64,000 nucleotides of DNA from Heptranchias perlo (lineage: Eukaryota), in the NCBI RefSeq assembly GCF_035084215.1, contig NW_027139442.1, forward strand, positions 4,464,001 through 4,528,000, read 5' to 3'. Shown one piece after another: positions 24,946 to 63,689 of the stretch. Made by a program: the position numbers and the translations under genes. Numbering within the stretch: the stretch's first letter is position 1; each line of letters starts with the position of its first letter. Under the pieces are notes generated by a model. It did not search any database. It was not told where the DNA came from and saw only the letters and a list, made by a program, of their open reading frames with translations.

Positions 24946-27192
24946 ATGGTCATGGAAAAGGACAGGGAGGGGCCGGAAATAAAGGTTCGAAATTGGGGGA
25001 AGGCCGATTTTAATAGGATGAGGCAGGATCTGGCCAAAATGGACTGGGATCAGCTGCTTGTAGGAAAATCCGCATCGGAGCAATGGGAGTCTTTCAGAAG
25101 GGAGATTGAGACCATACAATGGCAACATGTTCCCGTAAAGGTCAAGGGTGGTTCCAAGAACTCCAGGGAACCTTGGACGTCAGGGGATATACGAGAATGG
25201 ATTAGGAAAAAAAGGAGGGCTTTTGGCAGATACAAAAGGCTAAAGACGGAGGAAGCCCTAGAGGAGTACAAAAAGTGCAGGGGGATACTTAAAAAAGAAA
25301 TTAGGAGATCAAGGAGGGGCCATGAAATAACACTGGCGAGCAAAATAAAGGAAAATCCTAAGATGTTTTATAAGTATATTAAGGTTAAGAGGATGACGAG
25401 GGAAAAAATAGGGCCCATTAGGGACAAAAATGGCAATCTGTGTGTGGAGCCGGCAGATGTAGGAGGGGTTCTAAATGAATTTTTTGCATCTGTTTTCACT
25501 ATGGAGAAGGAGGATGTAGACATAGAAATACGGCAGGGGGACTGTGATATACTCAAACATATTAACATCGAGTGGGAGGAGGTATTGGTGGTTTTAGCAG
25601 GCCTAAAAATGGATAAATCCCGAGGCCCGGACGAAATGTATCCCAGGCTACTGTGTGAGGCAAAGGAGGAGATTGCGGGGGCTCTGACACATATATTCAG
25701 AACCTCTCTGGCCACAGGGGATGTGCCAGAGGACTGGAGAACCGCTAATGTTATACCATTATTCAAGAAGGGGAGTAGGGAAAAACCGGGGAACTACAGG
25801 CCAGTGAGCCTAACATCAGTGGTAGGAAAATTATTGGAAAAAATTCTGAAGGAAAAATTAGTCTCCACTTGGAGAAGCAAGGATTAATCAGGGATAGTCA
25901 ACATGGCTTTGTCAAGGGAAGATCATGTCTGACTAATTTGATTGAATTTTTTGAGGGCGTGACTCGGCGTGTGGATGAGGATAACGCAATGCATGTGGTA
26001 TACATGGATTTCAGTAAGGCCTTCGATAAAGTCCCCCACAGGAGACTGGTCAAGAAGGTACGAGCCCATGGAATCCACGGTGCCTTGGCACTTTGGATAC
26101 AAAACTGGCTTAGTGGCAGAAGGCAGAGGGTGATGGTCGAAGGTTGTTTTTGTGACTGGAAGCCTGTGGCCAGTGGGGTACCACAGGGATCGGTGCTGGG
26201 TCCCTTGCTGTTTGTGGTCTACATTAATGACTTGGATATGAATGTAAAAGGTATGATCAGTAAGTTCGCTGATGATACAAAAATTGGTAGGGTGGTAAAT
26301 ATCGAGGAGGATAGCCTCAGTCTGCAGGACGATATAGATGGGTTGGTCAGATGGGCGGAACAGTGGCAAATGGAATTTAACCCGGAAAAGTGCGAGGTGA
26401 TGCACTTTGGAGGGACTAACAAGGCAAGGGAATACACAATGAATGGGAGGACCCAAGGCAAGACAGAGGGTCAGAGGGATCTTGGTGTGCAAGTCCACAG
26501 ATCCCTGAAGGCGGCGGAACAGTTAGATAAGGTGGTAAAGAAGGCATATGGGATACTTGCCTTAATTAGCCGAGGCATAGAATATAAGAGCAAGGAGGTT
26601 ATGATGGAGCTGTATAAAACACTGGTTAGGCCACAGCTGGAGTACTGTGTGCAGTTCTGCTCGCCACACTACAGGAAGGATGTGATCGCTTTCGAGAGGG
26701 TGCAGAGGAGATTCACCAGGATGTTACCAGGGCTGGAGCGCTTCAGCTATGAAGAGAGACTGGGAAGATTGGGTTTGTTTTCCTTGGAGCAGAGGAGGCT
26801 GAGGGGGGACATGATTGAGGTGTACAAAATTATGAGGGACACAGATAGGAAGGATACTAAGGAACTTTTTCCCTTTGTTGAGGGTTCTATAACAAGGGGA
26901 CATAGATTCAAGGTAAAAGGCGGGAGGTTTAGAGGGGATTTGAGAAAGAACTTTTTCACCCAGAGGGTGGTTGGAGTCTGGAACTCACTGCCTGAAATGG
27001 TTGTGGAGTCAGGAACCCTCACAACATTCAAGAAGCATTTGGATGAGCACTTGAAATGCCATAGCATACTAGGCTACGGACCAAATGCTGGAATATGGGA
27101 TTAGAGTAGACTGGGCTGATGGCCGGCGCGGACACGATGGGCCGAAGGGCCTCTATCCGTGCTGTATAACTCTATGACTCTATGACTCTATA
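24946..27192 (+). mobile_element. Young 5'-truncated CR1 LINE; ORF2 split by one frameshift
   Basis: Overlapping ORFs 24946-25887 and 25869-27104 with [19 protein letters not shown]; 3' tail (ctatgact)n. Confidence 0.95.
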
Positions 27193-28984: not shown

Positions 28985-29062
28985 GGATCCACGCACGGCA
29001 TCACTTCAGAACAACGAGAGATTCTGCCTCCCACGTTAACGATGACACAGCTTCAGCAGAAA

Positions 29063-29132
29063 ATGCGATATCCCGTCATTATTCAGATAGAATATATATA
29101 TTATCCGCTTCTCGCAGCCGTCGGTGTTCTTG
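29063..29132 (+). CDS. GPR139/142-like GPCR gene 2, coding exon 1
   Basis: MRYPVIIQIEYIYYPLLAAVGVL+G, donor G|GTAAG at 29133; an in-frame ATG at 29042 could add 7 aa. Confidence 0.88.
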
Positions 29133-30057
29133 GTAAGCTAGTATACGTAAGTATTAATTGAATAGATATACATTTCACCTTAAAGCTGCTCTCGTGATGT
29201 ATCTCAAAATGTCATTTTTGATTGATGTGATTGTTATATATTGATATCAGTTCAACGATAGATACATTCTATATTTTCGCCATTTACTTCATGTCATTTT
29301 TCTGTCAGTTTTATAGCGGCATCGAAATTGAAATGGGCTTCTAACCGTCGATTGACCTATTGATATGAAACCTCTTCATTTCAAAGAAACAGGTTAATGC
29401 CTCAGTTAGAAAGGAGAGGGAAATTTCAGATAAATGGAGTAATAATCCATACCACCCACAGCCTGCTGTCAACGCCAATGACTTCGAAATTATCACTGAC
29501 GATAGTAAAAGACCAAAAGTCAAGGTGTTTGATATTCTGCAATATTAGTAATAACACATTTGGAATAAATTAATTAATTCTGCATTCAAAGTATAGGTCA
29601 AAGAATATTATTTGTCGTGAAATGTCAAAACGTTGAAAAATTTGACAGTATAGAAATAGAGACAGTTGGATCATCGCTCTCTGCAGCACGGAGCGTGGCG
29701 CCGGCCGATGAAAATCCGAGGGACTGCAGCAGCACAAGTGGTGGAAGGGAGTAATTACAGTGCTGCAAATTTTCGCAGGCAGTTCCCATTATAAATATGG
29801 AGATATGTATTCATAAGAGGAAGATTTGACAAAGAAAGTACTCCAATGCAATATTTTTATTACAGCAAGATTTATAATTCATGGAAGTTGGCTTGATGTT
29901 CTTATCTTCCTTGTAATTTAGCACCTTCTTTACAAGGACGAGCTGTGCAGCTGAAGGGATCCTATCCATTAATTAATGCAGGAACAGGACTGTGTCAAAC
30001 TGATGGTTTTGCAGTGAGTTGCATGAAAATGCCTTTATTTCTTTCTCTTCATTACAG

Positions 30058-30962
30058 TTAACGTACTCGCCATTGTGATCTTATCTCGAGGAAAGTGCGG
30101 TCTATCCCCATGCATCTCTCGATACCTGTTAGCTATGGCAGTGGGAGATTTGCTAGTCGTTATCACTGATCCGATATTAAGGAGGATTCGTGTGATACAT
30201 TTCCCGGATTCATATTTGTCCGTTTTCCCTGTTTGTAGTGTCATTGTGGCCATGTCTCGTGCCGCTAGAGATAGCTCTGTCTGGTTAACTGTCGCCTTGA
30301 ATTTCGATCGATTTGTGGCCATTTGCTCTGTGAAGCTGAAATCAAACTATTGCACCGAGAAAACTACATTTATCGTAATGGTAACAATTTGCTTGTTAAT
30401 CTCTTTAAAAACCATTCCCTGGTGCTTTGCTTATGAACCCAGTTTTCTACTTGATAATGTTCCGTGGCATTGCAAATTAATATCAAAGTATTATACATCA
30501 CGCGAATGGATAATATTTGACTGGATTGATACCATTTTAATTCCGTTTATTCCATCTTTTGTGATTCTGCTCCTCAATATTTTGACCATCAAACACATTT
30601 TAGTCACCAGTAAAATTCGCAGGAGACTCAGGTGCAGCAGTAGCGGTGATAATCACAGTGATCCTGAGACGGAGAACCGAAGAAAATCCATCATTCTGCT
30701 GTGCACTGTTTCAGGCAGTTTTATACTGTTGTGGACACCATACGTCATAAACTCCGTGTATTTCCAAATTACAGGCACATTTCACATCATATATCCTCAT
30801 AACTCTATATATATCTCACGAAAGCTGGGATATATGCTTCTTCTTTTAAGTTCCTGCACTAATACGTGTATTTATGCAGTAATTCAAACTAAATTCAGAG
30901 AAGAGCTGAAGAATCTGGTGAAATATCCATTGCGACTGATTGTTAAATTAGTTGAGCAATAA
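30058..30962 (+). CDS. GPR139/142-like GPCR gene 2, coding exon 2 (spliced protein 324 aa)
   Basis: Acceptor 'ttcattacag|TTAAC'; RGKCGLS, FDRF, FILLWTP, SCTNTCIY; open to TAA. Confidence 0.93.
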
Positions 30963-31223
30963 AAAGTACGACCGGATTGTATTCCTAGTCTGACAGCTCA
31001 TTCGGCATTTTCTTATTTTGTGCTTGTGGAGCTAATGGACTTCAATGTTGTGAAGTGGCGAATCCATTCGCTATTCCATTTTGCATTTATCTTATTTCAA
31101 AGTTTTATCTATCTCAGTCTCCACCCCTGCCTCAATCCATCTGCTGCTGAAACCCTTATCCATGCCTTTGTTAAATCTAGAATCGACTATTCCAATGTTC
31201 ACTTGGCCGGTGTCCCATCTTCC

Positions 31224-32155
31224 TGGATCCAGGCGTGTAGCTCAGGCCATTGAATAACACATTGGATCCAGGCGTGTAGCTCAGGTCATTGAATAACTCA
31301 CTGGATCCAGGCGTGTAACTCAGGCCATTGAATAACACATTGGATCCAGGCGTGTAGCTCAGGTCATTGAATAACTCACTGGATCCAGGCGTGTAACTCA
31401 GGCCAATGACTAACACACTGGATTCAGGCGTGAAGTTCAGGCCATTGAATAACACACTGGATCCAGGCGTGTAACTCAGGCCATTGAATAACACATTGGA
31501 TCCAGGCGTGTTGCTCAGGCCATTCAATAACACATTGGATCCAGGCGTGTAACTCAGGCCATTGAATAACACATTGGATCCAGGCGTGAATTTCAGGCCA
31601 TTTAAGAACACATTGGATCCAGGCGTGTAACTCAGGCCATTGAATAACACATTGGATCCAGGCGTGAAGTTCAGGCCATTGAATAACACATTGGATCCAA
31701 GCGTTTTGCTCAGACCATTCAATAACACATTGGATGCAGGCGTGTTGCTCAGGCCATTCAATAACACACTGGATCCAGGCGTGAAGTTCAGACCATTGAA
31801 TAACACACTGGATCCAGGCGTGTAACTCAGGCCATTGTATAACACATTGGATCCAGGCGTGTAACTCAGGCCATTGAATAATACACTGGATCCAGACGTG
31901 TAGCTCAGGCCATTGAATAACACATTGGATCCAGGCGTGTAACTCAGGCCATTGAATAACACACTGGATCCAGACGTGTAGCTCAGGCCATTGAATAACA
32001 CACTGGATCCAGACGTGTAGCTCAGGCCATTGAATAACACATTGGATCCAGGCGTGTAACTCAGGCCATTGAATAACACACTGGATCCAGACGTGTAGCT
32101 CAGGCCATTGAATAACACACTGGATCCAGACGTGTAGCTCAGGCCATTGAATAAC
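31224..32155. repeat. 39-bp minisatellite, ~24 copies
   Basis: Unit ggatccaggcgtgtaactcaggccattgaataacacatt; abuts an L2 fragment at ~31105-31222. Confidence 0.97.
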
Positions 32156-32359
32156 ATGCAGGAAGGATTCAATTGCAGACGGTTACACAATCACTCGCAT
32201 AGCCTTCAGGTACGTGCATTTGATATAAAGAGACAGTTCTGTCACGACCAATCACCAGCTGGTGCAAGAAATGTAAAACTGATAGGCAACCATCATTAAT
32301 GTCACCAGATTGACGACGCTGGTTTTCTACAAATATATACCTTTCTTCCTAAATCTTAA

Positions 32360-34274: not shown

Positions 34275-37200
34275 TAACAGGTGCCAGGGTTAAGGACATC
34301 TCCTCGAGGCTGGAGAAGAACTTGGAGTGGGAGGGGAAGGATCCAGTTGTCGTGGTCCACATAGGTACCATCGACGTAGGTAGGACTAAGAAAAAGGTTC
34401 TGCTGAGAGAGTTTGAGCAGCTAGGGACGAAATTAAAAAGCAAAACCACAAAGATAGTAATCTCCAGATTATTACCTGAGCCACGAGCAAATTGGTATAG
34501 AGTCAATGGGATCGGAGAGATGAATGCGTGGCTCAAAGATTGTTTTGGGAGAAGTGGGTTTGGATTCGTGGGGCACTCGCACCAGTACTGGGGAAAGAGC
34601 GAGCTGGTTCCGTTGGGACGGACTAAACCTGAACCACGCTGGGACCAGAGTTCGAGCGAATCGAATAACTAGGGAGGTAGAGAAGGCTTTAAACGAAACA
34701 AGGGTAGGGGAGTGTCTCGGTGGAGAGAAATCTAGAATGCTAAAGAGAAAATACAAAGAAGCAGTGCAGGGAAGTGATTTGGGTAAGGATAACCAGATTG
34801 TGTCAGGAAGGTACAGAGCGTATAAACAAAAGAGTGCACGAACAAATAGGGTCCGGGTGAGAAAAAAATGGTAACAAGACAAATAGGACCATGTACAAAA
34901 AAAATCAAAATGTCTCAAAATGTTAAAAAAGACAAATCTAAAGGCACTGTATCTGAATGCACGAAGCATTCGTAATAAGGAAGACGAATTAACAGCACAA
35001 ATCGATGTAAATGGATTCGATACAATTGCGATTACAGAGACATGGTTACATGGTGACCAAGGCCGGGAGCTGAATATCCAAGGTTATTCCATAATTCGGA
35101 AGGACAGGCAAAAATGAAAAGGAGGTGGGGTGGCCTGGTTAGTAAAGAATCAAATCAGAGCAAAACTGAGAAAGGATATTGGCTCAGAAAATCAAGATGC
35201 AGAATCAGTCTGGGTGGAGTTAAGAAGCACCAAGGGGAAGAAAACACTGGTGCGAGTTGTCCATCGGCCTCCAAATAGCAGTGGTAATGTAAGGGACGGC
35301 AATTTACAGGAAATTAGAGAAGCATGTAACAAGGGTACTATATATAGACATGCCGAAAAAATTAGCAATAATACTGTGGAGGATGAATGCCTGGCGTGTG
35401 TATAATATGTTTTTTTAGACCAGTACGTTGAGGAGCCAACCAGGGAACAGGCTACCCTAAATTGGGTATTGTGCAATTGGAAGGGCTTAATTAATAATCT
35501 TGTTGTGCGGGTCATTTAGAGATGAGTGACCATAACTTGCTAGAATTCTTCATTAGGATGGGAAGTGAAGTAGTCCAATCCGAAACTAGGGTCCTAAATC
35601 TAAACAAAGGGAACTAAGAAGGTATGGGAAGTGAGTTGACTCCGATATATTGGGAAGCTTCATTAAAAGGCATGACTGTGGATAGGCCAGCATTTAAGTC
35701 ACTAAAGCACAAAAGGAAAAGCGGCCCAACCATGACTAACAAAAGAAATTAAAGAGAGTATTAGATCGAAAGAGAAGTCATATAACGTTGCCGGAAAAAA
35801 GTAGCAAGACTGAGGATTGGGAGCAGATTAGAATTCAGCAAAAAAGGACCAAGAGATTGATTAAGAGGGGAATAATAGATTATGAGAGTAAACTTGCAAG
35901 GAACATAAAAGTGGACTGTAAAAGCATCTATAAGTATGTAAAAAGAAAAAGATTAGTGAAGACAAATGTAGGTCCCTTACATTCAGAAACGGGAGAATTT
36001 ATAATGGGGGACAAGGAAATGGCAGAGCAATTAAACAAATACTTTGGTTCTGTCTTCACGCAAGATGACACAAATAACTTCCCAGAAATGCTAGCGAACC
36101 AAGGGGTTAGTGAGAAGTAGAAATTAAAGGAAATTAGAATTAGTAAAAAAATAGTGCTGGAGAAATTAATGGACTGAAAGCCGATAAATCCCCAGGTCCT
36201 GATGATCTGCATCCCAGAGTTCTAAAGAGGAAGCCATGGGAATAGTTGATGCATTGGTTGTCATCTTCCAAAATTCTATATATTATGTAATAGTTCCTGC
36301 AGATTGGAGAGTGGCAAATGTAACCCCACTATTTAAAAAAGGAGGGAGAGTGAAAACAGGGAACGACAGACCGGTTAGCCGAACATCAGGAGTAGGGAAA
36401 ATACAAGAGTTTATTATAAGGGATGTGAAAACAGGACACTTAGAAAATATCAACGGGATTAGCAAAGTCAACATGGATTTACGAAAGGGAAATCGTGTTT
36501 GACAAATATACTAGAGTTTTTTTGAGGATGTAACTGGTAGAATAGATAAGGGAGAACCAGTGGATGTGTTGTATTTGGATTTTCAGAAGACCTTTGATAG
36601 AGTCTCACATAAGAGGTTAGCGTGCAAACCTAAAGCACATGGGATTGGTGGTAATATATTGGCATTGATTGAAAATTGGTTAACAGACAGGAAACAGAGA
36701 GTGTGAATAAATGGATCTTTTGTGGTGGCAGGCGGTGATTAATGGGGTACCGCAGTGATCAGTGATTGGGTCCCAACCATTCAGAATATATATGAATGAT
36801 TTGAATGAGGGAACCAAATGTAATATTTTCAAGTTTGCTGACGACAGGAAACTAAGTGGGATTGTGAGTTGTGAGGAGGATGCAAAGAGGCTTGAAGGCG
36901 ATTTAGTCAAGTTGAGTGAATGGGTAAATACACGGCAGATGCAGTATAACTTGGATAAATGCCAAGTTATTCACTTCGGAAGGAAAAACAAAAAGGCAGA
37001 GTATTATTTAAATGTTGATACATTGGGGAAATGTTGATGTACAAAGGGACCTGATTGTCCTTGTCCACCAGTCACTAAAAGCAAACATGCAGGTGCAGCA
37101 AGCAGTTCGGAAGGCCAATGGTATTTTGGCCTTTAATGCAAGAGGATTTGGGTAAAGGAGTAAGGATGTCTTCCTGCATTTATGCAGGGTCTTGGTGAGA

Positions 37201-37590
37201 CCACACCTGGAGTATTGTGTGCAGTTTTGGTCTCCTTCCCTAAGAAAGGGTATACCTGTAATAGACAGAGTGCAGCGAAGGTTCAACAGACTGATTCCTG
37301 GGATGGTAGGAGTGTCGTATGAGGAGAGATTCGGTCAACTAGGCCTGTATTCACTAGAGTTTAGAAGAATGAGAGGAGATCTCATTGAAACATATAAAAT
37401 TCTGACCAGGCTGGACAGACTGGATGCAGGGAGGATGTTTCCGCTGGCTGGGGGGTTTGGAACGAGGTGTCTCAGGACACGGGGTAGGACATTTAGGAGT
37501 GAGATGCGGATCAGCCATGATCATATTGAATGGCGGAGAAGGCTGGAAGGGCCGAATGGTTTGCTCCTTCTCCTATTTTCTATGCTTCTA
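34275..37590 (+). mobile_element. Degenerate CR1 LINE (ORF1 3' half plus ORF2)
   Basis: 'PVVVVHIGT', 'NARSIRNK..ITETWL', 'KFADD', 'VRPHLEYCVQFW' in successive broken ORFs. Confidence 0.9.
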
Positions 37591-37799
37591 GGCCAGTCAG
37601 TTTAATCTCGGTAGTGGGAAAACTTTTAGAATTTAAAATTCGGGACAAAATTTACAATTACTTGGACAAGTGTGGATTAATTAAGTAAAGCCAGCACGGA
37701 TTTGCTAAAGGCAAATCTCGTTTAATCAACGAGATTGAGTTTCTTTGCTGAATTGGGGAGTGGAGGAGAGGCGTTGGATGTGGATGGTGTTTGAGCAAT

Positions 37800-43245: not shown

Positions 43246-43544
43246 AGAGTTGAGAAAAGATCAGAGGAAACTTAAGTCGGCGGCGGTAGAAATGGACAAA
43301 AAAGGAAAATGAGACCAGGGATTTTGCAACAATGTCACAGGATGAACCCCTTCCCTTCGATCAATCTCTCTTAAATTAAAAAAGAACACTCTGCCAGCTC
43401 TGCGTTGTTTTATTTTCCAACTCCGCTCGGATTTACCTCTGACCCTCCAAGCTACCACTTCATGGATTCTCTCTAACTCTCCGAGTGATCTATTTTGTAC
43501 CGAGTGCGGTGATAATTCCCTTTATCTCTCTCTCTCTCTTACAG

Positions 43545-44443
43545 TTAACTTGGTAGCGATTGTGATCCTGTCCCGAGGCAAATGCGGTCTCTCCAAATGT
43601 ATCACTCGCTACCTGGTGGGAATGGCAGCGGCCGATCTAACGGTGGTGATCATTGAAGTCATTATGAAGCGAATTAACAACATTTACGTGCCAGTAAATG
43701 TTCTGTTCATCACTCCAATATGTGCCCTGAAACTTGTGACGAAGATGGCGGCCCTGGACTGTTCGGTCTGGTTCACGGTCGCTTTCACCGTCGATCGCTT
43801 TGTAGCCATTTGCTGTCAGAATCTCAAACCAAAGTTTTGTACACAAAGGATGGCGAGCCTTGTTGTAGGGACCGTGTGTATGCTAGGCTGTTTGAGGAGC
43901 ATCCCCTTTTACTTTGTGTACCAACCCCAATTTATAATTAATGGCGTCCCGTATTTCTGCATTTTAACGGCTGCCTATCATACCTCGCCCTGGTGGGCAG
44001 CGTACGAGTTTTTCGACAGCATTTTAACCCCTTTACTGCCCATCTTTTTCATTCTGTTTTTCAATGTTCTCACCGCCAAACACATTATAATGTCCAATAT
44101 AGTCCGCAGGACACTCCTGAGGAACGTCGATAATCACAATGACCCAGAGACCGAGAACCGAAAGAAATCCATGATTTTGCTCTTCACTCTATCCGGCAAT
44201 TTCATTCTACTCTGGGCCACGTATGTTGTACATTCCTTAAGTTGGCGGGTGAAGAACTACAATTATACAGACAGATACTACACTAACCCGATATACATCA
44301 ATCAGCAAACGGGATACATGCTGCAGCTTCTCAGCTCCTGCAACAACACGTGTATCTATGGACTGACACTGAGGAAATTCAGAGAGGAGCTGAGGAACGG
44401 GGTGAAATATCTGTTTACACTGAATGGCAGAGTATGTAAATAA
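43545..44443 (+). CDS. GPR139/142-like GPCR gene 3, main coding exon (first exon not found)
   Basis: Acceptor '(ct)n tacag|TTAACTTG'; intact 297-aa ORF with RGKCGLSKC, VDRF, FILLW, SCNNTCIY. Confidence 0.9.
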
Positions 44444-44819: not shown

Positions 44820-46920
44820 GGTCAGAGTGAAGCATTTAATAATAATGCCCACTGGACCTTATCTGGTCAATGAGAAACATTTAATAGCAATGAACAATTG
44901 ACATTGAGCCACATTTGGTCAATCTGAAACATTTACCAATAATTCACAATGGAGACTTGCGCTTATGTGGCCTTTGTGAAACATCTAATAATAATGCACG
45001 CTGGTCACTGGGTCATATCTGGTCAACGTGAACATTTAATAATAATGCACACTGGATACTGGATCTGATCTGGTCAACGTGTAACATTTAATAATAATGC
45101 ACACTGGATACTGGATCTGATCTGGTCAACGTCTAACATTTAATAATAATGCACACTGGATACTGGACCTGATCTGGTCAACGTGTAACATTTAATTATA
45201 ATGCACACTGGACACTGGACCACATCTGGTCAACGAGATACATTTATTAATAATGATGCAATGTGAAGCATTGAATATTAATGCACGCTGGACATTGCAT
45301 CACATCATTTAACATTTAATAATGCACACTAGATCGTGGGTCACCTCTGAACAATGTGAAGCATCCAGGGGGGATACACACTGGACAATGGGGCACATCT
45401 GGTGAACTTGAATCATGTTTTAATAATAATGTACACTGGAAGCTGGGTCACATCTGGTCAATGTGAAATATATCGTACCAATGCGCCTTGGACACTGGGT
45501 CGCATATGGTCAATGTGGAGCATTTAATAGCAATGCACTATGTACACTGTAACTCATCTGGTCCATCAGAAATATTTAATAATAATGGATACTGGACACT
45601 GGGCAAGATTGTGAACATGTAAAATTTAAAAATCATGTATATTGGACACGATACCACATTTGATCAATGAGAAACATTGAAGAATAATGCACACCAGACA
45701 CTGCGTCACCTCTTGTCAATGTGAAACATTTAACACTGGATACTGGGTCATATCTGGTTAAAGTGAAACATTTACTAAAATTGCACACTGGACAGTGGGT
45801 CACATCTGGTCAATGTGAAACTTTTAATAATAATGCAGATTGGACGTTCGGCCACATCTGGTCAATGTATAACATTTCATAACGCACACTGGACACTGTA
45901 GCACATCTGGTCAACGTGAATCATTTAATAATAATGTACACTGGAGACGTTGCCACATTTTGTCAATGATAAGCATTGAATGATAACATGCACACTGGGC
46001 CATATCTGGTCAAAGTGAAGCATTTATAAGTAATGATAACTTTGACACTGGGCAAATCTGGTCAAAGTGAAGCATTTAGTAGCAATGATAACTTTGACAC
46101 TGGACCAAATCTGGTCAAAGTGAAGCATTTAGTAGCATTGCATATTTGGCACTGGGGCACACCTGGTTAATGTGGATCATCTGATAATAATGTGCACTGG
46201 ATGCTGGGTCACCTCTTGTTAATGTGAAATATTTAATAATAATGTAAACTGGATACTGGATCACATCTGGTCAATTAGAAACATTTATTAATAATAATGT
46301 GCACTGGACACTGCGCCACAGCTTGTCATTGTGAAGCATTTAGTAATAATGCGTATTGGACACTGGGCCATCTCTGGACAGTATGAAACATTGAATATTA
46401 ATGCAGACTGGACACTGCATCACATCTGGTCAAAGTGAAACATTTACTAAAATTGCACACTGGATACTGGGTCACATCTGGTCAATGTGAAACAGTTACC
46501 AGTAATGCACATAGGACAATGGGTCACATCTGGCCAATGTGAAACAGTTACCAGTAATGCACATAGGACAATGGGTCACATCTGGCCAATGTGCCACAGT
46601 TAATAACAATGCACATTGCACACTGTGTCACATCTACTCAATGTGTAGCATTAATTAATAATGAATACTGGGCACTGGGTCACATCAGTTCAACGTATAA
46701 CATTTCGTAATAATGCACATTCGACACTGGGACGAATCTGGTCAATCTGAAACTTATAATAATAATGCACACTGGACACTGGGTCACATCTGGTCAATGT
46801 AAAACCATTCATAATAATGCAGGCTGGGCACTGGGTCACATCTGGTTAATATGAAACATTTAATAATAATGTACACTGGACACAGGGTGCCATCTCATCA
46901 ATGTGAAACATTTAATAATA
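44820..46920. repeat. Degenerate ~52-bp minisatellite, ~40 copies
   Basis: Unit acatttaataataatgcacactggacactgggtcacatctggtcaatgtgaa. Confidence 0.95.
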
Positions 46921-52713: not shown

Positions 52714-52790
52714 TTAACCAAAGAAAGACGAGCGATGCTTTCTGAGAGCTGCGGATTCCTTCCTTGAGCCGCTCTCCTGCAGCTTCACCG
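52714..52790 (-). CDS. Candidate cytoplasmic-tail exon of the Ig receptor
   Basis: Acceptor 'ttattatacag|CG', phase 1, reads (A)VKLQESGSRKESAALRKHRSSFFG*. Confidence 0.45.
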
Positions 52791-53029
52791 CTGTATAATA
52801 ATTTAATATGACCGGAGCAGGACTTAATCTCACTCTCCCCTGAACAGTTCGGCTTACGCAGCTTGGGACAATAACGTCTACTGCCGGAATGGGTCCCGGT
52901 GCAATGTTGGGCGAGCAGTCTGCTTTGGTTTCTGTTTGACGACCGTTCATTCTTCCTTTCACTTTCTGTATCAGAGATCAGATTTCACCCCAGCCACCAG
53001 ATCTCGATTTTACAAGGCCACTTAAAGGG

Positions 53030-54160
53030 TTGGGAATCTTTGGAATTCTTTACCCCCCAGAGGGCTGTGGATGCTCAGTCGTTGATTATATTCAAGACTG
53101 AGATCGATAGATTTTTAGAGACTAAAGCAATCAAGGGCTATTAGGATCGGGCGGGAAAGTGGAGTTGAGGTCCAAGATTAGCCATGGTCTTATTGAAGGG
53201 CGGAGTAGGCTCGAGGGGCGGTACGGCCCACTGCTGCTTCTATTTCATACATTCTTATTTCCTTATGTGAGGACAGGAGAGCACTGAACTCAGAGAAGAG
53301 AGAGCAAGGTGAGTTAAGATAGGGTTTGACGTCAGCCAGGATGACAAGTTGTTCAGTGCAGAGACAGAGGGGCAAAACCAGTAATTTATTCTGGGTGAGA
53401 AACTTGGCGTGGGGCATGTGTGGGAGGTAGAGAACAAGGATTTTATAGGAGATGTGAGAGGGGTGGAACAAAGTGAGGTGCTTAAAGGAGGAGAAGGTGC
53501 CGGACGACAATGTGGAGAGAACAAGGTGTGATTCGGTGAAGGGCAACACCGCCACCACAGCGGTTTGGGCGGGGCAGGTGGTGAAAATTACAACCACAAG
53601 GGGGGCTTTAGTAAGGAGGAAGGTGTCATCGCTCATCAACCACGTTATCGTTAAAGCCATCATTTCGATGCAATCCTTTTAATGAGGCCATGGATGGTCC
53701 GGTCAGAGCCCAGTACAGTTTAATTAGGACCTTTTCTGACTTGTATTCCATTGTTTTGGGATGTGTAGTTCAAGATTCTGTTGGATTTATTGATCGCTGC
53801 TCTGCACTGGTTAGACAGGTTGAGCGCCGGGTCTGCTAAGAATTTAAGTCCATTTAAGAAGATAAGAAAATAAAAGAGAGGAGCAGGAGTAGGCCATAGG
53901 GCCTCTCGAGCCTGCTCCGCCATTCAATCAGATCGTGGCTGACTTTCGACCTCAACTCCACTTTCCCGCCCCATCCCCATATCCCTTGATGACCCTACTG
54001 TTCAAAAATCTATCTATCGCAGCCTTGAATATAACAACGACGCAGCATCCTCAACCCTCTGAGATAGAGAATGCCAAAGATTCACAACCCTCTGACTGAA
54101 GAAATTCATCCTCATCTCAGTCTTAAATGGCCGATCCCTTATCCTGCGACAATGGCCCCT
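53030..54160. mobile_element. Mosaic of CR1 3' ends (+ 53030-53260, - 53860-54160) and an L2-like fragment
   Basis: CR1 3' UTR hairpin 'ggcggagtaggctcgaggggc..cccactgctgcttct' present in both orientations. Confidence 0.65.
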
Positions 54161-54348
54161 CATACGAGTGTTAACTTCGTCCTTAGACATTTCATCTTTC
54201 AGTCCATGATCTCCTTACATTTACAGCCCGAGGTTAGGAGTCCAATGATAGATGGTTGGAGGAGATGGTTAGTAGTGGGGAAGAGAGAGGATAATTAGCT
54301 CAGTCCGTGTATTTGTAATGAACTGATATTATATATTGTTTAACCTAC

Positions 54349-54438
54349 CTCTCTTCCAGAAGCACACAACCAACAGAGCAAGGATGAGCATCAGAACCAC
54401 AGCAGAGCCAACACGAGCCTCCAGCGCAACGGATTCAT
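54349..54438 (-). CDS. Transmembrane exon of LRC/LILR-like Ig receptor
   Basis: 'tttag|AT...AGAG|gtagg', 90 nt, phase 1-1: DESVALEARVGSAVVLMLILALLVVCFWKR. Confidence 0.8.
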
Positions 54439-55479
54439 CTAAATGATATAAAGGGGCAAAGTAGAACCAAGTTAGCCCAAAGATTATTCACGAAATAAAT
54501 AATTTGCTATTTAACAAAGAACATAATAGGCAGCGGATGTTTCATAATGCGGAGTGAATTTCTGAAGGGGAAAAAATGGTTGAGATGAAGGTGTGTTTCC
54601 AACACTCGCCGGAGGCGTAATTGGATTTGGCGGGGGAAGCGAAACTTGTGCAGTCCCTTTTGCCGCCAGTTATACCGCACGCCAAATATCCAGTTGAGTG
54701 GAAGTGGCTCCTCTCGTCACTTTTACCCCTATAAATGTCCCACATTAATGCAAGGCTCCAAAATCAGGGAATCGGTAATGAGCTCGGCAATGGTTCGACA
54801 TCCGGGTGAGAAACGGGGACACGGATCAAAGCTCAATTGTCATTAGCCCATTAATTAAAAGCCTCATATATTCATTGATTCCTTCGTTGGATAATAATAG
54901 TGGACCTGGGACCAGGTGAATTTTTAATTCTTCCCAGCTCACGGTAAAAATATCACACCGGCAGTGTGGAAATTAATCAATTTAATTCTGTTAACTCGAG
55001 AATCAGCATTGGGTCTAAACTGCGCATGTGCGGAGAGGATTGATGCGGTGACGTTTCAGGAGTGGATCTTGGTCAGAACTCACCTGTTCTCTGCACAGAG
55101 GCTGACCGATTATTACAGCATTTGATTGTTTTTATCGTGTTTTGCTGACTAGGTTAAATTAGTTCTTGTTAAAGACCGTAGCGTGGATGTTATTTTCTCA
55201 GCTTCACCGGGGGGCAACCCTGGACTGTTCGCGGATTGGTAAGGAACGACAGGACAAACCGAGCGAATTTAACTTCTCATCAGAATTTGAAAAATTAAAT
55301 CATTCAACGTTTTATGCTGTAGTTTTTTCCTCAGTAACACGATAAATGGCGAACATTTAATGAAATAAGCGTTACAATGCTTTTCGATATAATTTCCACG
55401 CCACTTTTACGCCACACTGGATCAGGCCAAAAATGGAAAATAAACACATTTTACTGGTGTCGGATGAACACAAGTTAAC

Positions 55480-56085
55480 AAAGCACTGGGGTTTATTTCT
55501 AGCGGAATAGAATCGGAAAGCAGATTTTTTTGTTAAACTGGTATAGAACCTTGGTTCGACCACATTTAGAATACTGTGTACAGTTCTGGCCTCCAGAATA
55601 CATAAAGGTATAGAAGCACTGTCGAAAGTGGGAAGAAGATTTAGGAGGATGTCACCAAAACTGAGAGGGTACAACTATCAGGAAAGACTGAACAGGCCGG
55701 GTCTCTTTTCTCGAGAAAAGAGCTGATCTGATGGAGGTTTTAAAATTATGAAGGGGTTCGATAAGGTCGATAAGAAGTTTGTACTTGTGCGGAGTCCAAA
55801 GCTCGGGGACGTAAATACAATATAGCCACAAATAAACCCAATAAGGAATTCAGGAGAGACATCTTTACCCTGATCGTGGTTAGAATGCGCATCTCGCTGC
55901 CACATGGAGTGAGTGAGGCAAATAGCATAACTGCATTTAAGGGCAAGCTAGATGAGTACACGAAGGAGAAAGGAAAAGAAGGACATGTTTATAGCGTGAG
56001 ATGAAGTAACGTGGAAAGAGGCTCGTGTGGAGCATAAAGACCGCCATCGATCCGATGGGCTGAATGTCCATTTTGTGAGCTGTAA
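55480..56085 (+). mobile_element. CR1 LINE 3' fragment
   Basis: 'ttggttcgaccacatttagaatactgtgtacagttctgg' encodes LVRPHLEYCVQFW. Confidence 0.75.
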
Positions 56086-56204
56086 AAACACCCATGATCC
56101 ATTTGAATGGCGGAATATGCTTGAGGGAATGGATGGCTTAATTCCATGTTAGTAAAATTCGATAGAATTCGAAGTGATACAGTCACCGTGCCAATCTCAC
56201 TCAC

Positions 56205-56501
56205 CTCTTACAGTTATGTGTACAGGGTCACTCAGAGCTGACGTTTGCAGCTTTCTCTTCCCATTTGCTTCATACAAACATATGTAGTTTCCTCCATCGT
56301 CATGATCTATATTCGTGAGCGTGAAGGTGACATAATTTCGCCGTGCAGCAGCAAACTGGATATCCGAGTAATTCGCTTCCCCATGTCTGTATAAGTAAAA
56401 TGTGGAGCAAGGAAGCTTCTGGCGATTTGTGCAGTTAAAGATGACTTTTCCACCTTTCACAGCAATACTAGAATCCACTGATATATTTGGTTTGGGTAGG
56501 T
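56205..56501 (-). CDS. Ig (C2-type, LILR/A1BG-like) exon, membrane-proximal
   Basis: 297 nt, AG/GT, phase 1-1: DLPKPNISV..VIFNC..TFYLY..GGNYICLY..SALSDPVHITV. Confidence 0.88.
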
Positions 56502-57094
56502 CTGTAATTCGAATGGAACAAGTAGTGACAATCGATTGAAATGCAATGAGCAAACGTATTTTGTGAGCCAAACTGTAATGCACCAGGTACAGCAGTCCTG
56601 AATAATTTCACCGGATTCCGCACATTGCTGCCAATCGTGCAGCTGAACAATTAATGGTTCAACCAACTTTATAGCATTTTGGTTTACTTTATATTCAGCA
56701 TCCGAGCGCCCGTGCAGTCATCTCAGGCACGATACAGTAGACGAAAAGGGAGAGCAGTGGGCGAGGGAAATGCACGATTGGAAAACAGACAACTTGTATT
56801 CACTGGAGATTTGTGTGTGTGAAAATTATAGAAAGAAAAAGATGGCCTAAAATCTCGAGGGTATTTTGAAATCCTTCCCTTCACTGGCTTACACTTTGTG
56901 ATATGTAATTGTACCACTCACCCTGGAATTATCACAGACACAATTTAAAAGGCCTATTGAACATTGCTATTCGTAATTAAATATTTTGTACCCTGTGAAA
57001 CATTTATCAGAAAGTGCGATTTCTTATCATAACTTCCTGTTATGTATCTACTTTAGTTCATGGAACAGCGTTTACTCGACATTTCTCTTCATTA

Positions 57095-58620
57095 TAAGTT
57101 CAGAAGTGTGGCTGTTCGCTAATGATTGCACAGTGTTCAGCTCCATTCGCAAATCATCAGATAATGAAGAAGTCCATACCCGCATGGAGCAAGACCCGGC
57201 CAACATCAGACTTCGGCTGATAAGTGGAAAGTAACATTCGCACCACACAAGTGCCAATCAAAGACCATCTCCAACAAGCGAAAGTCTAACCACCCCTTTG
57301 ACATTCAATGACATTACCATCGCCGAATCCCCGACCATCAACATCTTAGAGGTCGCCATTGATCGGAAACTCAACTGGACCAACCACATAAATGCTGTGA
57401 TTATCAGAGTAGATTCGACGCTGGGTATTCTGCAGTAAGTGGCTCACCTCCTCATTCCCCAAAGCCTATCTGCTGTAAGGAAATATTGGTTAAGGTATTA
57501 TGGGGAACCAGGCGCGAAAGGGTTAATTAGTCAATGCTTTAACTGAAACGACTGCACCATAACATAGATTGCTTTTAAATTAACGTACTGCAGCTGCAGG
57601 CACTAACATTCATCAAAACCATGTCATTTCAAACAAAGGGAGGGACTTAACGGCACCCCCACTCCTTCAGGCTTACTGGAATGCTGAAGTTAACTAGTTA
57701 CCTTAAAGGCCTAGAGAGGGATTTATCAACTGCAGGGATTGAGGAACATTGTGTTAAAGATAAGGGGCTGGAGGGTGCACAAGACGCAATCCTTTCTTGG
57801 CAATTACGTGTTGTCGAGACGATTTGGTAAATTAAAGGGAGGATTTTGGAAAAGACCTGATTGGGTGTATGTTCCCGCAGTTCCGTTTATTGGAGTAAAA
57901 CTGTTAGTCTGGGCTTTTGTTAAGTGCAGGGAACAGTATAGAAAGTACAAGGCGGTAAACGAGAACGAGAGTACTAGGTGAAGGAACGAACAGGGCACGA
58001 GGTCGCAGCTTCGACCCAAAATAATTCTCAATTGTGTTTTGTAAACGACTGCTGAAACACTGTGATGTATTGATTCTTGCTTGTGCTCAGTAAAGTCACA
58101 AGGCTATTAACCATTATGGTGTCAGTCTCGAAGAATTGAGCAGAGAGTCAAATTGACTACACTGCCACCAACAAGGTGGCAGGAGTGTGATGGAATTCTC
58201 TTCACTTGCCTGGGCGGGTACAGCTGCAAATAGACTCAAGAAGCTCGACAGCATCCAGCACAACGCGGACCGCTTGATCGGCAGTCCATTCACTACCTCA
58301 ACCATCCACTCCCTGCATCACTGGTGCACCGTGGCTGCAGTATGTACTATCTACAGGATAGACTGCAGCACATTCCTAACTCGCGAACTCCACCATCAGT
58401 CAAGACAAGTGTCGAATCGCTATGGGAACACCATCACCTCCAAGTTCCCCTCCAAGTCAGACACTCTTCCGAACTCCCTACCTAACAGCACTGCGGGTAT
58501 ACCTTGTCAACATGGACTGCATGGTTGAAGAAGAAGGCTCACCACCACCTTCTCAATGGCTACTATAAATGGGCAATAAACGCCGGCGTTTCAAGCGATA
58601 CACACATCCTGAAGAATGAT
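57095..58620 (+). mobile_element. Non-LTR retrotransposon RT 3' fragment split by a solo LTR
   Basis: 'LFANDCTVF' (FADD-like) on the left; 'KKLDSIQH..SLHHWCTVAA' on the right. Confidence 0.65.
57474..58161. mobile_element. Solo LTR, 688 bp
   Basis: TGTAAG...CTACA termini; 4-bp TSD CTGC (57470-57473, 58162-58165); flanking LINE is contiguous across it. Confidence 0.8.
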
Positions 58621-59049
58621 CAAAAATTCAAGTCCACAAGCCTGTAACTCATTCATCTGAAATGTGAATCCCCATGGATTAGCAGAGATTTTCACTCTTT
58701 TTAATCACGTTTGCAACTCAGATAAATTAGCGGAATTGTGAATGTGGGACAAACGCATTTTCCTTGTTCCATTCATATCCTGGTGTGAATTTTTTGGGCT
58801 GTATCCTTTCTTTGGGACTGGAATCCCTGATTTCTTTTGTTTCTTATTTCCGTTTCAGTCAGCTCGTGAAACTGTGAATTCCCCTTTTGTCGAATCTCAG
58901 TTCCCGATGCAAACACTTCCCTTCAACACAATCGGTATTGAGTTAACAACCTTCCACGACATGTGGCAATTCACAGCTCTTGGCCTTATTTTTCTTTCCA
59001 TTAATTTTACCACAGACCCGGTTTATCTAATGGGCTCTGCATTAGCAAG

Positions 59050-59410
59050 TGACAGATTATCTGGTCCCCTGGCATCTCTCTCGCTACTGAGTTCGAAGGC
59101 GGTGGGTATAAGGTCAACTCCAAGACTTTAGTACCTAAGCCACGTTGAATATTGATTGTAGTGGAAGGCCAGGCTGCAGTGTGAAAGTAAACGTTAAATC
59201 GAGGCACTACCTGCCCGTTTAGCCGAACAGGAAAGAACCGGTGGGCAACATTTAGCCCTCAACCAATACGGTCAAAATGAATGAACCGATTATTCTCTCA
59301 TTGCTGTTCGTGTTAACTGGGTACCGCGTTTACAACAGTGACCACACTTCACCGGCTGTGACATGCTTTGGCACATTTTGAAGAAGGAAAAGCCGCTATC
59401 TGATTATCTT
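59050..59410 (+). mobile_element. Decayed Deu-domain SINE
   Basis: 'cgttaaatcgaggc', 'tacaacagtgaccacacttc' shared with 2110-2560. Confidence 0.5.
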
Positions 59411-59659
59411 TCTATTTACACTGCTGATTTCTGGTTAGAAAATACTTGGGGTTACCTAAATATCTGCATGAAATGCTTCGGCCGTCAAATTTGGGCTGAA
59501 ATTTGTCCTGGTTGGTATCGTAAGATGGGCGATAACTATCGGCAGCCAATTTTACACTCCGCCCAATTTTGCACTCCGCCCAATTTTCATTTCAAGTCAC
59601 TTCAATGTTGGATAATAGGGGACAATTTCGACTCCCGTATAAGGCTAAGTTCACCGCAC

Positions 59660-59982
59660 ACATAGATATAAATTAACATCGGAGTTACAGTGAATGCTGA
59701 TCTCTATAAATGAGACTAATCCCACCCTACACTTGGATGTATATTAGCATAGATGTTACAGTGAGTGCTGGTCTCCAGTAACGATACCATTCTCACCCTA
59801 CACTTGGATCTATATTAACATTGGGGTGACAGTGAATGCTGGTCTCTCTTAATGGGACTAATCTCACCCTACACTTGGATATATATTAGCATAGGGGTTA
59901 CAGTGAGTGCGGGTCTCTATTAACGATACTATTCGCACCCTACACTTGGATATATCGTAACATCGGTGTTACAGTGAATGCT
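59660..59982. repeat. 71-bp tandem repeat, ~4.5 copies
   Basis: 'gttacagtga' at 59684, 59755, 59826, 59897, 59968. Confidence 0.92.
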
Positions 59983-60166
59983 ATAAATGCTTTCACCGGC
60001 AGTAAACGGTCAGCCTATGTGTTCAGGTCCGTTTGTTATAGAGACCATGAGCTGAGCGCCGAGACGTTGAACATACAACACTGAGACATTTATACAAAGA
60101 TTATTTTTTGAAAATATAAAGAGTGTTGAATAGATATATTAACAATCTCTCCTCTCCTTCCCTCAC

Positions 60167-60457
60167 CTGCTATAGTGATTGTCACAGCCTCACTCAGCGG
60201 GGACCAGAATCGCCTTCTTTTGACGACGGTTCTATATTTGCATTGGTACCGCCCTCCTTGGTTTGAACTGGTAACCGTGAATGTTCCAATGCTGCCCTTG
60301 GTGAAGAATTGGCGAGATGTCAGCAGTTGATTATTTCTGTAAAAGTAGATTTTACCGCGATATTCCCTGTTGACGTTGCAGGTAATGGTGACCGTCCCTC
60401 CTTTTAAATACACCCCAATCGATTGATCAAGAGACATCCGCGGCCGTGTGATTGGAT
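60167..60457 (-). CDS. Ig exon of LRC-like receptor
   Basis: 291 nt, 'ccacag|AT..G|gtgag', phase 1-1: DPITRPRMSL..VTITC..IYFYR..GGRYQCKY..SPLSEAVTITI. Confidence 0.88.
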
Positions 60458-61553
60458 CTGTGGTAAAATAGATAGAACCAGCAATGAGAAATTGACCTGT
60501 TGGTATTTTCGTGCGCGGGAATGTTGGTATCACAATAACGATTCCGCGATGATCAAGGGAAATGTTACATCGTGGCCTGGGTTCCACAAAAGAGTAATTC
60601 GCGACTTCATCAGTGGAATGAAATGGATGCGTGACTAAAAAGAAATCGGCTGGGGTTTCTATTTGTAAAATCAGATTTTATCCCAGAAATTGCTCTCTGT
60701 GATACAAGCGGAACAAGCGTTGATTTCAATTCCCATTGATGCTGATATAGCAGCATCTCAAACGCAATTAACAAGAGTACACGCCAACGCTAAACTGTGG
60801 GAAGTCACATTTCAAATAAAGCTTGGAAATGTTGGTGGGCTAGAATTTTGATTCTCATATTTCGGTGTGTTTGTTTTGCTGCAAAAGTCGGCATTTACTG
60901 CCCATCCTTAGGTGCCCTTGAGAAGGTGATCGTCGACCCTCTTCTTGCACCGCTTTAGCCCGCGTGGCAAAGGTACTCCCTCACTGTTGTTAGATAGTGT
61001 GTTCCACGATTTTGAATGGCGATATATGTCCAAATCAGGATGGTGAGTGACTTGGAAGGCAACGGCAGTGATGGTGTTCCCATGCCCCGGCTGCCCTTCT
61101 CAGTGGTGGAAGTCACGGATTTAAGAGGTGCTGCCGAAAAGCAATCAAGTGAGATATATGGAAAACTACAACATAACTGATTTGAAGTATTCTGCAAAGC
61201 AGTATCACGGTGAAAGTCTCAGCAGGCAGTTTCGGTTAACTGTCAGAGAAATTGGTAATATGTCAAGACCAGCCAGTCTGGCGGTACCTCGTGAGGTGAC
61301 GCTACAGTCGGTGGAGCTAAAAGACTGGCGACGTGCTGTCATTGTGGCATTAAACATTTCGCCCTGCTAGTTCAGATATGTAAGGCATAAAATTGGAAAT
61401 CATGACCATAGATGTGTAATAACATCACATCACCTCCATTTACACATTAAGGAGGGCGTATGTTGACATTGTGCCTTATCAGGGACCTTGGACCAACGGC
61501 TGAAAGGAAGACTCATTTCTGGGATGCAGTTTTTCCTCAGTACTGAACTAAAG

Positions 61554-61725
61554 GGGACATGTTAACCGGAACCGCCCAGTGGGAATGGGACGGGATCGAA
61601 CGGCCGGCCATTTTACACTCTGCCCATTAAAGTTAACGGAGGGTAAAATCGGGCGAAGTGTAAAACGGGTGGCCGACCCGAACCTGCCCCCTTTCCCGTC
61701 TTTGAGAGTTAGTTAAAAATAACCC
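61554..61725. mobile_element. Imperfect palindromic MITE-like element
   Basis: 'cggccggccattttacactctgccc' versus 'gggcgaagtgtaaaacgggtggccg'; related copies near 15100-15240 and 63517-63650. Confidence 0.5.
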
Positions 61726-62129
61726 TCCATCCCTTCTTGGGAACTGAGCTCAAGACTTGGTTGAGATTGAAGACACAAAATTCTGCCTTAGGCGGTGACA
61801 TTGCGTCAATGAAAAAGAACATTCGGCGAAGTGTAACATGCTTCTGCATACCCTGGCACCAGTTTTGCGCTACCACTTAAGATGGATTTCATCCCACACT
61901 TGGATACAATAACATGGGGGTCAAAGTGACTGCTTCCCTCTGTTGATGCTTTCACAGGCGGTTCGCCTGTGTGTTCAGGACCCATTGTTACAGAGACCCT
62001 GTCAAGGGATGAACTCAGAAACACTCTCTGCCAATAATAAACACTGTTACATTGAAAGAAGTATAAAGTTCTGGAAATACCAAGAATGTTGAATAGACTG
62101 CCCTAAAATCTTTGTTCCCATTCACTCAC

Positions 62130-62420
62130 CTGTTATAGTTACCGTCACAGACTCGCTGAGCTGGGATTCTAACCATCTTGTTTTGGCATAGATTCCATAC
62201 TTGCATTGGTACATCCCTCCTAGGGTTGGACCGGTAACGGTGAAGGTTACAGTATTGTCCTTTGCGAAGAGCTGACGAGACCACAGCAGTTGATTATCTC
62301 TGTAAAAGTAGATTTGACCACGACATTCTCCGGCCACGGTGCAGGTTATGGTGACCGTTTCTCCTTCTAAATACACCCCAGTCGGTTGATCAAGTGATAT
62401 CTCTGGCGGTGTTAGCGGAT
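62130..62420 (-). CDS. Ig exon of LRC-like receptor (gene continues 5' beyond the window)
   Basis: 291 nt, phase 1-1: DPLTPPEISLDQPTGVYLEGETVTITC..GGMYQCKY..SQLSESVTVTIT; paralog of 60167-60457. Confidence 0.88.
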
Positions 62421-62755
62421 CTGTGGTAAAATCAATGGAAATAACAATTCGAAATGGAACTGTGTATTTTCATGTACAGTTCAAGAATGGTGACTCAGTT
62501 AGGATGGCGGTTTGTTGAAGGGAAATGTTTACATAATTTCTGAGATTCCACAAAAAAAGGGAATTCGCGATTTACTTTCCTCAATCAGTGGAAGTGCGAA
62601 AGTAAAGAAATCAGCTGGTGGTTCTATTTCGAAAATCAGCGCTTGGCCCAGAAATTGCTCTTTGCGATACGAGCAGAACACGGAAAATGCATTGATTTGA
62701 ATTCCCCTGTTCTGTTAATTTAGCCGAGCTGCAAACTCGATTAGAGACAGTGAAT

Positions 62756-62930: not shown

Positions 62931-63689
62931 CAATGTATCCGCTAAACCGTGGTGATTCGCTCTTAAAATAAAGGAGTTAAGTGTTGGTGGACTCGAAATT
63001 AATTTTATATAATTGTTTCCGATGTGGGCGTTTCCGCTGCCCATCCCGAGTTGCCTTTGTGAAGATAGTGGTGGGTCTTCTTCATGAGTCGCTGCAGCCT
63101 GTGTAGTGAGGAGGCTCCCACAATGCTGTTTGGGAGAGAGTCTCAGGATATTGATCCAGCAATAATAATGGAACGGTTATATAAGTCCAAGTCGGGATGT
63201 TGCTTGATAACGTTCCTGTGAAGCGATTCGGGACATTATTACTCCGTTAAAGGCGGTGTATAAATGCAAGTTTTTGTTATTGTTGTGACGCTACGTTCAG
63301 CGCAGTTGAGATCTTGGCGATGTGCCATCATTGTGGCATTGAACTGTTCTGTCTGCTAGTTCGGGCATGTAAGGAGTAAATTTGGAAATTAGGAACATAG
63401 ATCTGCTTTTATCCTTCAACAAGGTCTTACGTTGCACTTCATCAGGTGTCTCCTGCCAATGGCTGTCAGGAAGATTCATCTCTGGAATGCAGCATTTCTT
63501 CAGTACTCACCAAAATGGGGCAATTTTAACTTAAACCACCCGGCGGAAACAGAGTCGGTTCAGTCGGCCGACGATTTTGCACTTGGCCCGATTTTATGCA
63601 CCACTAGAATGGTTGGAGGGTAAAATCGAGCGGAGCGTAAAACTGGTGACCAACCTGAATAGGGCTCCAGCTTCGGATAATAACCACCG

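Follow-up and report, generated by a model that had tools for sequence, protein, structure and literature searches.

A stretch of 64,000 nucleotides from the shark Heptranchias perlo (RefSeq assembly GCF_035084215.1, contig NW_027139442.1, positions 4,464,001 to 4,528,000; referred to here as the window, with positions counted from its first base) carries on its reverse strand four exons of an immunoglobulin (Ig) domain receptor gene, three of which encode Ig domains and one a transmembrane (TM) segment. An original prediction, made from the letters of this DNA, regarded the gene as a candidate activating immune receptor coupled to FcR-gamma through an arginine in the TM segment. Comparison with related shark proteins leads us to a different view, in which the product is, on balance, a non-signalling member of a shark paired-receptor family, and one that lacks the immunoreceptor tyrosine-based motif of the inhibitory kind (ITIM). 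The earlier interpretation is right for the family and probably wrong for the gene in the window.

Exon structure of the receptor gene

All junctions of the window gene are predictions from the DNA sequence, and the features on which the analysis turns are the following (LRC, leukocyte receptor complex; class I is defined below):

62130..62420, minus strand: Ig exon 1 (Ig1), C2-type, 291 nt, AG/GT ends, phase 1-1, no stop
60167..60457, minus strand: Ig exon 2 (Ig2), 291 nt, AG/GT ends, phase 1-1, no stop; tandem duplicate of Ig exon 1
56205..56501, minus strand: Ig exon 3 (Ig3), membrane-proximal, LRC-like fold, 297 nt, phase 1-1, three N-glycosylation sequons
54349..54438, minus strand: TM exon, 90 nt, class I (uncharged, inhibitory type), AG/GT ends, phase 1-1, no stop
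54413..54415, minus strand: codon CGT for the Arg, on the TM segment's outer edge; one base from a Gly codon
54329..54348, minus strand: tail of 6 residues without Tyr that read-through of an unused TM donor might give, unproven
52714..52790, minus strand: candidate tail exon of the original prediction, not supported (acceptor rank 43/463, no homology)
58471..59020, plus strand: truncated copy, in inverted orientation, of the cassette of intron and acceptor found ahead of Ig exons 1 and 2

The architecture proposed originally, with three phase-1 Ig exons joined in frame to a TM exon, was borne out by the AG/GT ends, the 1-1 phases and the open frames at the predicted junctions: all eight splice sites (8/8) are canonical and the 969 exon bases contain neither stop nor frameshift. 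Each of the three Ig domains is encoded by one phase-1 exon, an arrangement common to most Ig-superfamily receptors. The TM exon scored 83.0 against a profile of the relatives' TM segments, with a runner-up of 17.1 among 127,846 positions, and the match therefore exceeds chance. The Pfam models Ig_2 and Ig_3 match Ig1, Ig2 and Ig3, and Ig3 also lies above the cut-off of the HIDE1 Ig model. Ig2 is strongly basic (16 Lys+Arg versus 3 Asp+Glu), and both Ig1 and Ig3 have a third Cys.

Ig1 and Ig2 arose with a tandem duplication of an Ig-exon cassette of ~2 kb, whose copies (59936-60734 versus 61890-62706, and 61296-61682 versus 63285-63659) retain 65-70% DNA identity, introns included. The copy at 58471-59020, which is 64% and 68% identical to the two cassettes, retains the acceptor but no more than the opening bases of an Ig exon. 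The duplication pattern continues toward the window end, which is consistent with more Ig exons upstream. Four open exons with intact splice sites, together with a ratio of nonsynonymous to synonymous substitution rates (dN/dS) of 0.46 between the Ig1 and Ig2 exons (an average over the whole time since the duplication), suggest constraint. A leader exon was not detected in the window; in FCRL and FcR genes the leader is by rule split into an exon of 30 bp and one of 21 bp (PMC2413239).

Relatives and subfamily placement

The best named relatives of the gene are sharks and rays, in agreement with the cartilaginous-fish setting that had been proposed for it. Ig3 as a query gave 11 matches among 45 candidates, all of them named shark or skate proteins and the best from Heptranchias perlo itself (65-72%); a full-length relative gave 32 matches among the 8000 proteins scored, 31 of them from sharks and rays and one from carp, and a third search 13 among 3250. 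In a profile search 3929 proteins passed E ≤ 0.001, and the listing covered 150 of these. The relatives carry automatic names such as FCRL5-like, IGSF1-like, LILRA, KIR and OSCAR. By sequence, the window gene belongs to an expanded shark and ray family auto-named FCRL5-, IGSF1- or LILR-like, and adds a further member to what the databases already contain under such names.

In a tree of 134 domains, which skipped seven isoform-like or TM-less proteins, Ig1 and Ig2 cluster with domains of P0001, P0036, P0024, P0019, P0029 and P0020 (support 0.987; P numbers designate proteins of our comparison set), and in a second tree, of 105 domains (FastTree), Pristiophorus P0042 and Rhincodon P0181 join this group. 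Ig2 groups with domain 7 of two 8-Ig proteins (support 0.93 in the 105-domain tree and 0.95 in the 134-domain tree). Ig1 matches domain 6 (D6) of the 8-Ig proteins of Scyliorhinus torazame and Pristiophorus, or a neighbouring repeat of that subtype, and is 72.9% identical to D5 of Heptranchias P0001. The full-length members carry 6, 7, 8 and 8 Ig domains, so that in all likelihood no more than the last three are contained in the window. The gene would then probably encode a 6-8-Ig receptor, with the leader and the other exons beyond base 64000, and the count of three Ig domains is probably an effect of the window edge.

The Ig1/Ig2 subtype and the order of domains before the TM segment are shared with a long, ITIM-less shark subfamily of six genes with a TM segment from six species, P0001, P0024, P0036, P0042, P0074 and P0181, of which P0074 was assigned by BLAST only. 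All six have Gly or Ala at the site of the arginine, and 6/6 lack an ITIM or an immunoreceptor tyrosine-based switch motif (ITSM) in the annotated tail. In four of the shark relatives (Heptranchias XP_067837063.1, S. torazame XP_072342980.1, S. canicula XP_038635718.1 and Pristiophorus UniRef100_UPI00398E60D0) the last three Ig domains are alike in type and order to those of the window gene, with 54-73% domain identity, and are followed by a class I TM exon and an annotated tail without ITIM. The window gene differs from them in having Arg, rather than Gly or Ala, at the TM edge.

Two classes of TM segment and a paired layout in the family

TM segments that scored 45 or more against that of the window gene were called class I, and 30 were found among the 183 proteins compared, a census that counts isoforms and one weak-scoring member, P0163. 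The window TM exon is 70-77% identical to the class I TM segments of Heptranchias P0001, P0003, P0004, P0005, P0007 and P0008, most of which have ITIM tails. ITIM-bearing paralogues, which had been proposed as something to look for, were found: 17 of the 30 class I relatives carry ITIM/ITSM tails, and the other 13 show no such motif.

A second TM segment, class II, reads Pro-Ile-Arg-Leu, with 16-17 apolar residues after the Arg and then Glu. It is found in nine proteins, P0006 and P0038 of Heptranchias, P0017, P0051 and P0178 of Mustelus, and P0025, P0027, P0039 and P0182 of Carcharodon, and its interpretation rests on automatic gene models of other species. Seven of the nine have tails of 6-40 residues without ITIM, and the remaining two are evidently fused gene models. 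Membrane-proximal ectodomains of class II proteins are 91-92% identical over 201 residues to those of ITIM-bearing proteins in Heptranchias, 69-74% over 202 residues in Carcharodon, and 94% over about 103 residues in Mustelus (59% over 205 for one pair); class II and ITIM-bearing ectodomains also pair in the 105-domain tree. The Carcharodon model P0182 joins a class II gene to the class I gene that follows it, which suggests that genes of the two classes are neighbours. One shark protein, P0002, is without a TM segment.

From these sequences, the family shows a paired-receptor layout in sharks, with two types of TM segment on near-identical ectodomains, and the class II proteins are likely to be its true activating members. 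The paired system envisaged originally is therefore upheld for the shark family, which has the two TM classes, and not for the window gene as its activating member: the activating-type TM exon of the family is a different one, and had no tblastn match in the window at E ≤ 0.05.

The cytoplasmic tail

The Tyr-free tail of ~25 residues that had been placed at 52790-52714 did not stand up. It resembles no relative's tail, and its acceptor ranks 43rd among 463 downstream AG sites by a crude score. Since 13 of the top 25 downstream acceptor sites also yield short Tyr-free peptides, such a tail is what chance would be expected to give. The downstream lists, both of acceptors and of tail blocks, omit one stretch of 150-200 bases.

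Three tail blocks of the family, with exon junctions taken from isoform break points and not from DNA, were not found on either strand of the whole window: the best scores were 15.9-18.5, while true blocks, when left out of their own profile, reach 28-44, 19-35 and 14-42. A tblastn search of 177 proteins against the window returned only the four exons and repeat-derived or chance matches, with no ITIM exon, and the 31 downstream hexamers that fitted a regular expression for ITIM-like motifs were scattered, many with stops or in the tandem repeat and none family-like. The frame 52977-52714 was considered as a family tail and rejected. Its YYTAVKL stretch, which is like the last motif of the family, ranked 294 of 127,912 in an exon-aware scan with a score of 5.0 versus 14-42 for true blocks, which is chance level. 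A stretch of this frame at 52965 had ranked 4 of 127,906 for the first tail block, in a scan whose profile probably spans an exon junction.

Both catshark relatives (P0024 and P0036) have kept the ITIM block with Asp replacing Tyr, and P0001 shows the same replacement in its last motif, so that ITIM and ITSM-like motifs survive in these three proteins with Asp instead of Tyr. Isoform break points suggest that an intron splits the codon of the ITIM Tyr, in which case a swap of the preceding exon removes the Tyr. Whereas the catshark relatives keep these remnants of tail exons, none is detectable for the window gene.

These observations bear on whether the gene encodes an ordinary inhibitory receptor, with ITIM/ITSM exons that are located beyond the window, are missing from the assembly or have diverged too far to be detected. 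The TM exon closes with a good phase-1 donor, as it would before cytoplasmic exons, and ITIM/ITSM tails are present in 17 of the 30 class I relatives. Nevertheless, the three tail blocks are undetectable across 54 kb downstream, a region that carries three G protein-coupled receptor (GPCR) genes on the opposite strand, the models of the six closest relatives with a TM segment have no ITIM, and two of these show the Tyr-to-Asp remnant. We consider an inhibitory receptor of this kind unlikely.

The arginine of the TM segment

The arginine noted in the original prediction is present (codon CGT, 54415-54413). Among the 30 class I TM segments, the corresponding residue is Gly in 25, Cys in 3, Ala in 1 and Val in 1, and in none is it Arg; over the 23 distinct class I strings the counts are 18 Gly, 3 Cys, 1 Ala and 1 Val, again with no Arg. 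The best 19-residue hydropathy window begins directly after the Arg, and a Glu lies two residues before it. P0004, also of class I, has another stray Arg two positions later and has kept its ITIM, which indicates that stray Arg changes arise without a switch of class.

LRC receptors that bind FcR-gamma have the TM Arg within an NxxR motif, a DYT-like start and an acidic C-terminal end (PMC2413239, PMC4536121, PMC6557307). Apart from the Arg, these marks are missing from the window TM segment, which has Leu instead of Asn at -3, lacks a Tyr ahead of the Arg and closes with the basic Trp-Lys-Arg; its homology is to the uncharged class. In other respects the window gene resembles LILRA, FcaRI/CD89, GPVI, NKp46, OSCAR and TARM1, with which it has in common an LRC-like fold of the membrane-proximal domain, one phase-1 exon per domain and, by its apparent position, an Arg near the N-terminus of the TM segment.

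An activating receptor could have been newly made from an inhibitory one in a conversion independent of class II, by analogy with the activating KIRs, which derive from inhibitory ones (PMC6557307). The ITIM exons would have been lost and a single base change would have given a TM Arg that recruits an adaptor with an immunoreceptor tyrosine-based motif of the activating kind (ITAM), by pairing with the Asp pair of a dimer of the FcR-gamma or CD3-zeta type, in a family with an older activating TM segment. The apparent position of the Arg at the N-terminal end of the TM segment and the failure to find an ITIM exon in the window would fit such a conversion. It has to contend, however, with the complete lack of this Arg among the 30 class I TM segments, those of all six closest genes included, with the stray Arg of P0004, with the missing NxxR marks and with the dedicated Arg-bearing TM segment that the family already owns. 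Furthermore, Arg position is critical in CD89, where a shift by one residue abolishes assembly (PMC13107469). We therefore regard coupling to FcR-gamma as improbable for the window gene, and the Arg is probably a one-off, incidental change in a membrane segment of the inhibitory type.

Ig domain type

The LRC-like character claimed for the membrane-proximal domain was confirmed for Ig3 by comparison of fold and sequence. Predicted models of Ig3 and Ig2 had mean confidence (pLDDT) values of 90.2 and 89.9, respectively. The Ig3 model matched CHIR-AB1 with Z 14.4 (root-mean-square deviation 1.6 over 92 residues), LILRB4 with 14.3, PirB with 14.2 and KIR3DL1 with 14.0; the top seven VIA rows were all LRC proteins (Z 13.1-14.4), compared with 11.5 for FCRLA and 11.4 for FCRL5, and Foldseek and phmmer concur. 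For Ig2 the matches were tied between CEACAM6 (12.9), CHIR (12.9), murine CEACAM1 (12.8) and CD22 (12.3), with PirB also among them, and a second fold search was similarly mixed, neither one choosing between the LRC, CEACAM, CD22 and FcR types. The best sequence match of Ig1 was FCRL5 (summed E 1.1e-9, with no single stretch passing), and FCRL5 and PirB were the top two PDB matches of both family profiles. In the 105-domain tree, which is unrooted and includes four amniote and three ray-finned-fish reference proteins, the shark domains form a clade of their own (support 0.88), apart from the ray-finned-fish and amniote domains. Because Ig3 favours LRC, Ig2 is tied, the profiles are mixed and the shark domains stand apart, the protein is best described, from sequences and models, as LRC/FCRL-like rather than as a member of either family.

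Comparison with known receptor systems

The class II TM segment of sharks shares with the NxxR segments an Ile-Arg-Leu core and an acidic C-terminal end, with Ser, Thr or Ile in place of the Asn, and from this resemblance we think it rather likely that the NxxR module of tetrapods has its shark homologue in Pro-Ile-Arg-Leu...Glu. The XFL receptors of Xenopus (PMC2413239) are organised much like the shark family: both are expanded and combine Arg-bearing TM segments and short tails with uncharged TM segments and Tyr-motif tails (TM1 versus TM2 in XFL), as well as TM-less forms. The likeness is one of layout; shark class II has Ser/Thr/Ile-Pro-Ile-Arg and not NxxR. Teleost LITRs and mammalian FCRL5 have long C2-Ig ectodomains with mixed FCRL/LRC similarity, as in the shark family; the stimulatory LITR uses a TM Lys (PMC4810170), whereas shark class II uses Arg.

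According to a survey of 2014, FCRL, LRC and FcR-gamma originated with bony fish, no homologue of any of them having been found in sharks (PMC4016189), and a review of 2021 traced LILR-like receptors back to ray-finned fish (PMC8562567). Genes named fcrl3 and fcrl5 have been reported in B cells of the bamboo shark, in passages that do not analyse pairing (PMC11372145). Passages of PMC10247546, PMC6795676 and PMC4810170 contain no shark data on the receptor family. A full-text search found no description of the two TM classes of the shark family or of their pairing; most subscription papers were outside its scope and an earlier description is possible.

Genomic neighbourhood

The strand opposite to the receptor gene carries three class A GPCR genes, which are related to each other (identity 50-56%):

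8616-9533, plus strand: class A GPCR gene
30027-30962, plus strand: class A GPCR gene
43346-44443, plus strand: class A GPCR gene, facing the Ig receptor gene tail to tail

Near 7511-7558 and 29027-29128 are what are probably first coding exons of GPCRs. The LRC is flanked by TTYH1, LENG8, RPS9, CNOT3 and other genes; within the window, the neighbours of the receptor gene are the three GPCR genes. Mustelus P0178 runs from its class II TM segment into a piece like these putative first exons (E 0.003 and 0.029, respectively), a weak hint in the sequences that a neighbourhood of Ig receptor and GPCR genes may be common to sharks. Tandem repeats occupy 44861-46920 (52-bp unit x 39.6) and 59651-59982 (71-bp unit x 4.7), and a further array at about 31177-32190 is visible as long repetitive open frames. 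Many fragments of reverse transcriptase and endonuclease like those of long interspersed nuclear elements, which we take to be of the CR1/L2 type, were found at 13318-14973, 18855-21068, 24868-27104 (nearly continuous) and 35118-37605.

Interpretation

In the reading that we prefer on balance, the four exons would be the 3' part of a gene for a type I membrane receptor whose C2-type Ig domains form a long rod, presumably expressed, which descends from the inhibitory branch (as its class I TM exon suggests) within a conserved subfamily of shark and ray paired Ig-like receptors. Its ITIM/ITSM tail would have been lost, as in its closest relatives, leaving a presumed C-terminus without these motifs. 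Most likely without signalling itself, the receptor may bind at the cell surface what its signalling paralogues bind, or some other ligand, and could serve for capture or as a decoy or tether. The Arg would be a lineage-private Gly-to-Arg change just outside the 19-residue apolar span, tolerated at the membrane surface with no adaptor binding.

Several points weigh against this reading. The junctions and C-terminus of the window gene are predictions from DNA, no RNA record was listed as containing the Ig3 exon (which counts neither for nor against expression), and the tails of its relatives are automatic gene models that differ between species, for which reason the lack of an ITIM may partly reflect missed exons. 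With its 8 residues the first tail block falls short of what the scan can detect, true scores of 7-15 standing against a background of up to 9.6; for the last block the weakest true match (14.2, P0001) lies under the background. Regarding the Arg, a basic residue in the right place can be enough for assembly, as the review PMC13107469 states, which would also favour an activating receptor. When scored with the Arg as anchor against the NxxR TM segments of three reptile proteins, the window segment reached 14.0 (shuffle fraction 0.08), within the range of the class II segments (10.7-16.7, shuffle fraction 0.004-0.036), so that the two are not cleanly separated. The reptile proteins have 16, 16, 17 and 19 apolar residues following the Arg, and a 19-residue apolar run after the Arg is thus also seen in one NxxR segment. 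Finally, the decoy or tether role is one that we only infer.

Less probable still than the alternatives considered above is a young pseudogene decaying in a birth-and-death cluster, in which tail loss and Arg would both reflect relaxed selection; the missing family tail exons, the inverted broken cassette inside the gene and the extra Cys of Ig1 and of Ig3 would suit it, but the intact 969 bases and canonical splice sites, the averaged dN/dS between Ig1 and Ig2 and the retention of a matching gene in several shark orders argue against it.

The main value of the analysis lies in the family, in which three shark genera combine near-identical ectodomains now with an ITIM tail, now with a TM segment that bears Arg, the signature of paired receptors. 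If confirmed, these proteins would provide named candidates for the activating and inhibitory leukocyte receptors of sharks and would allow one to test directly if the TM module that binds FcR-gamma is older than bony fish. If class II is indeed homologous to the NxxR module, paired signalling of the LRC/FCRL type would date to the common ancestor of jawed vertebrates.

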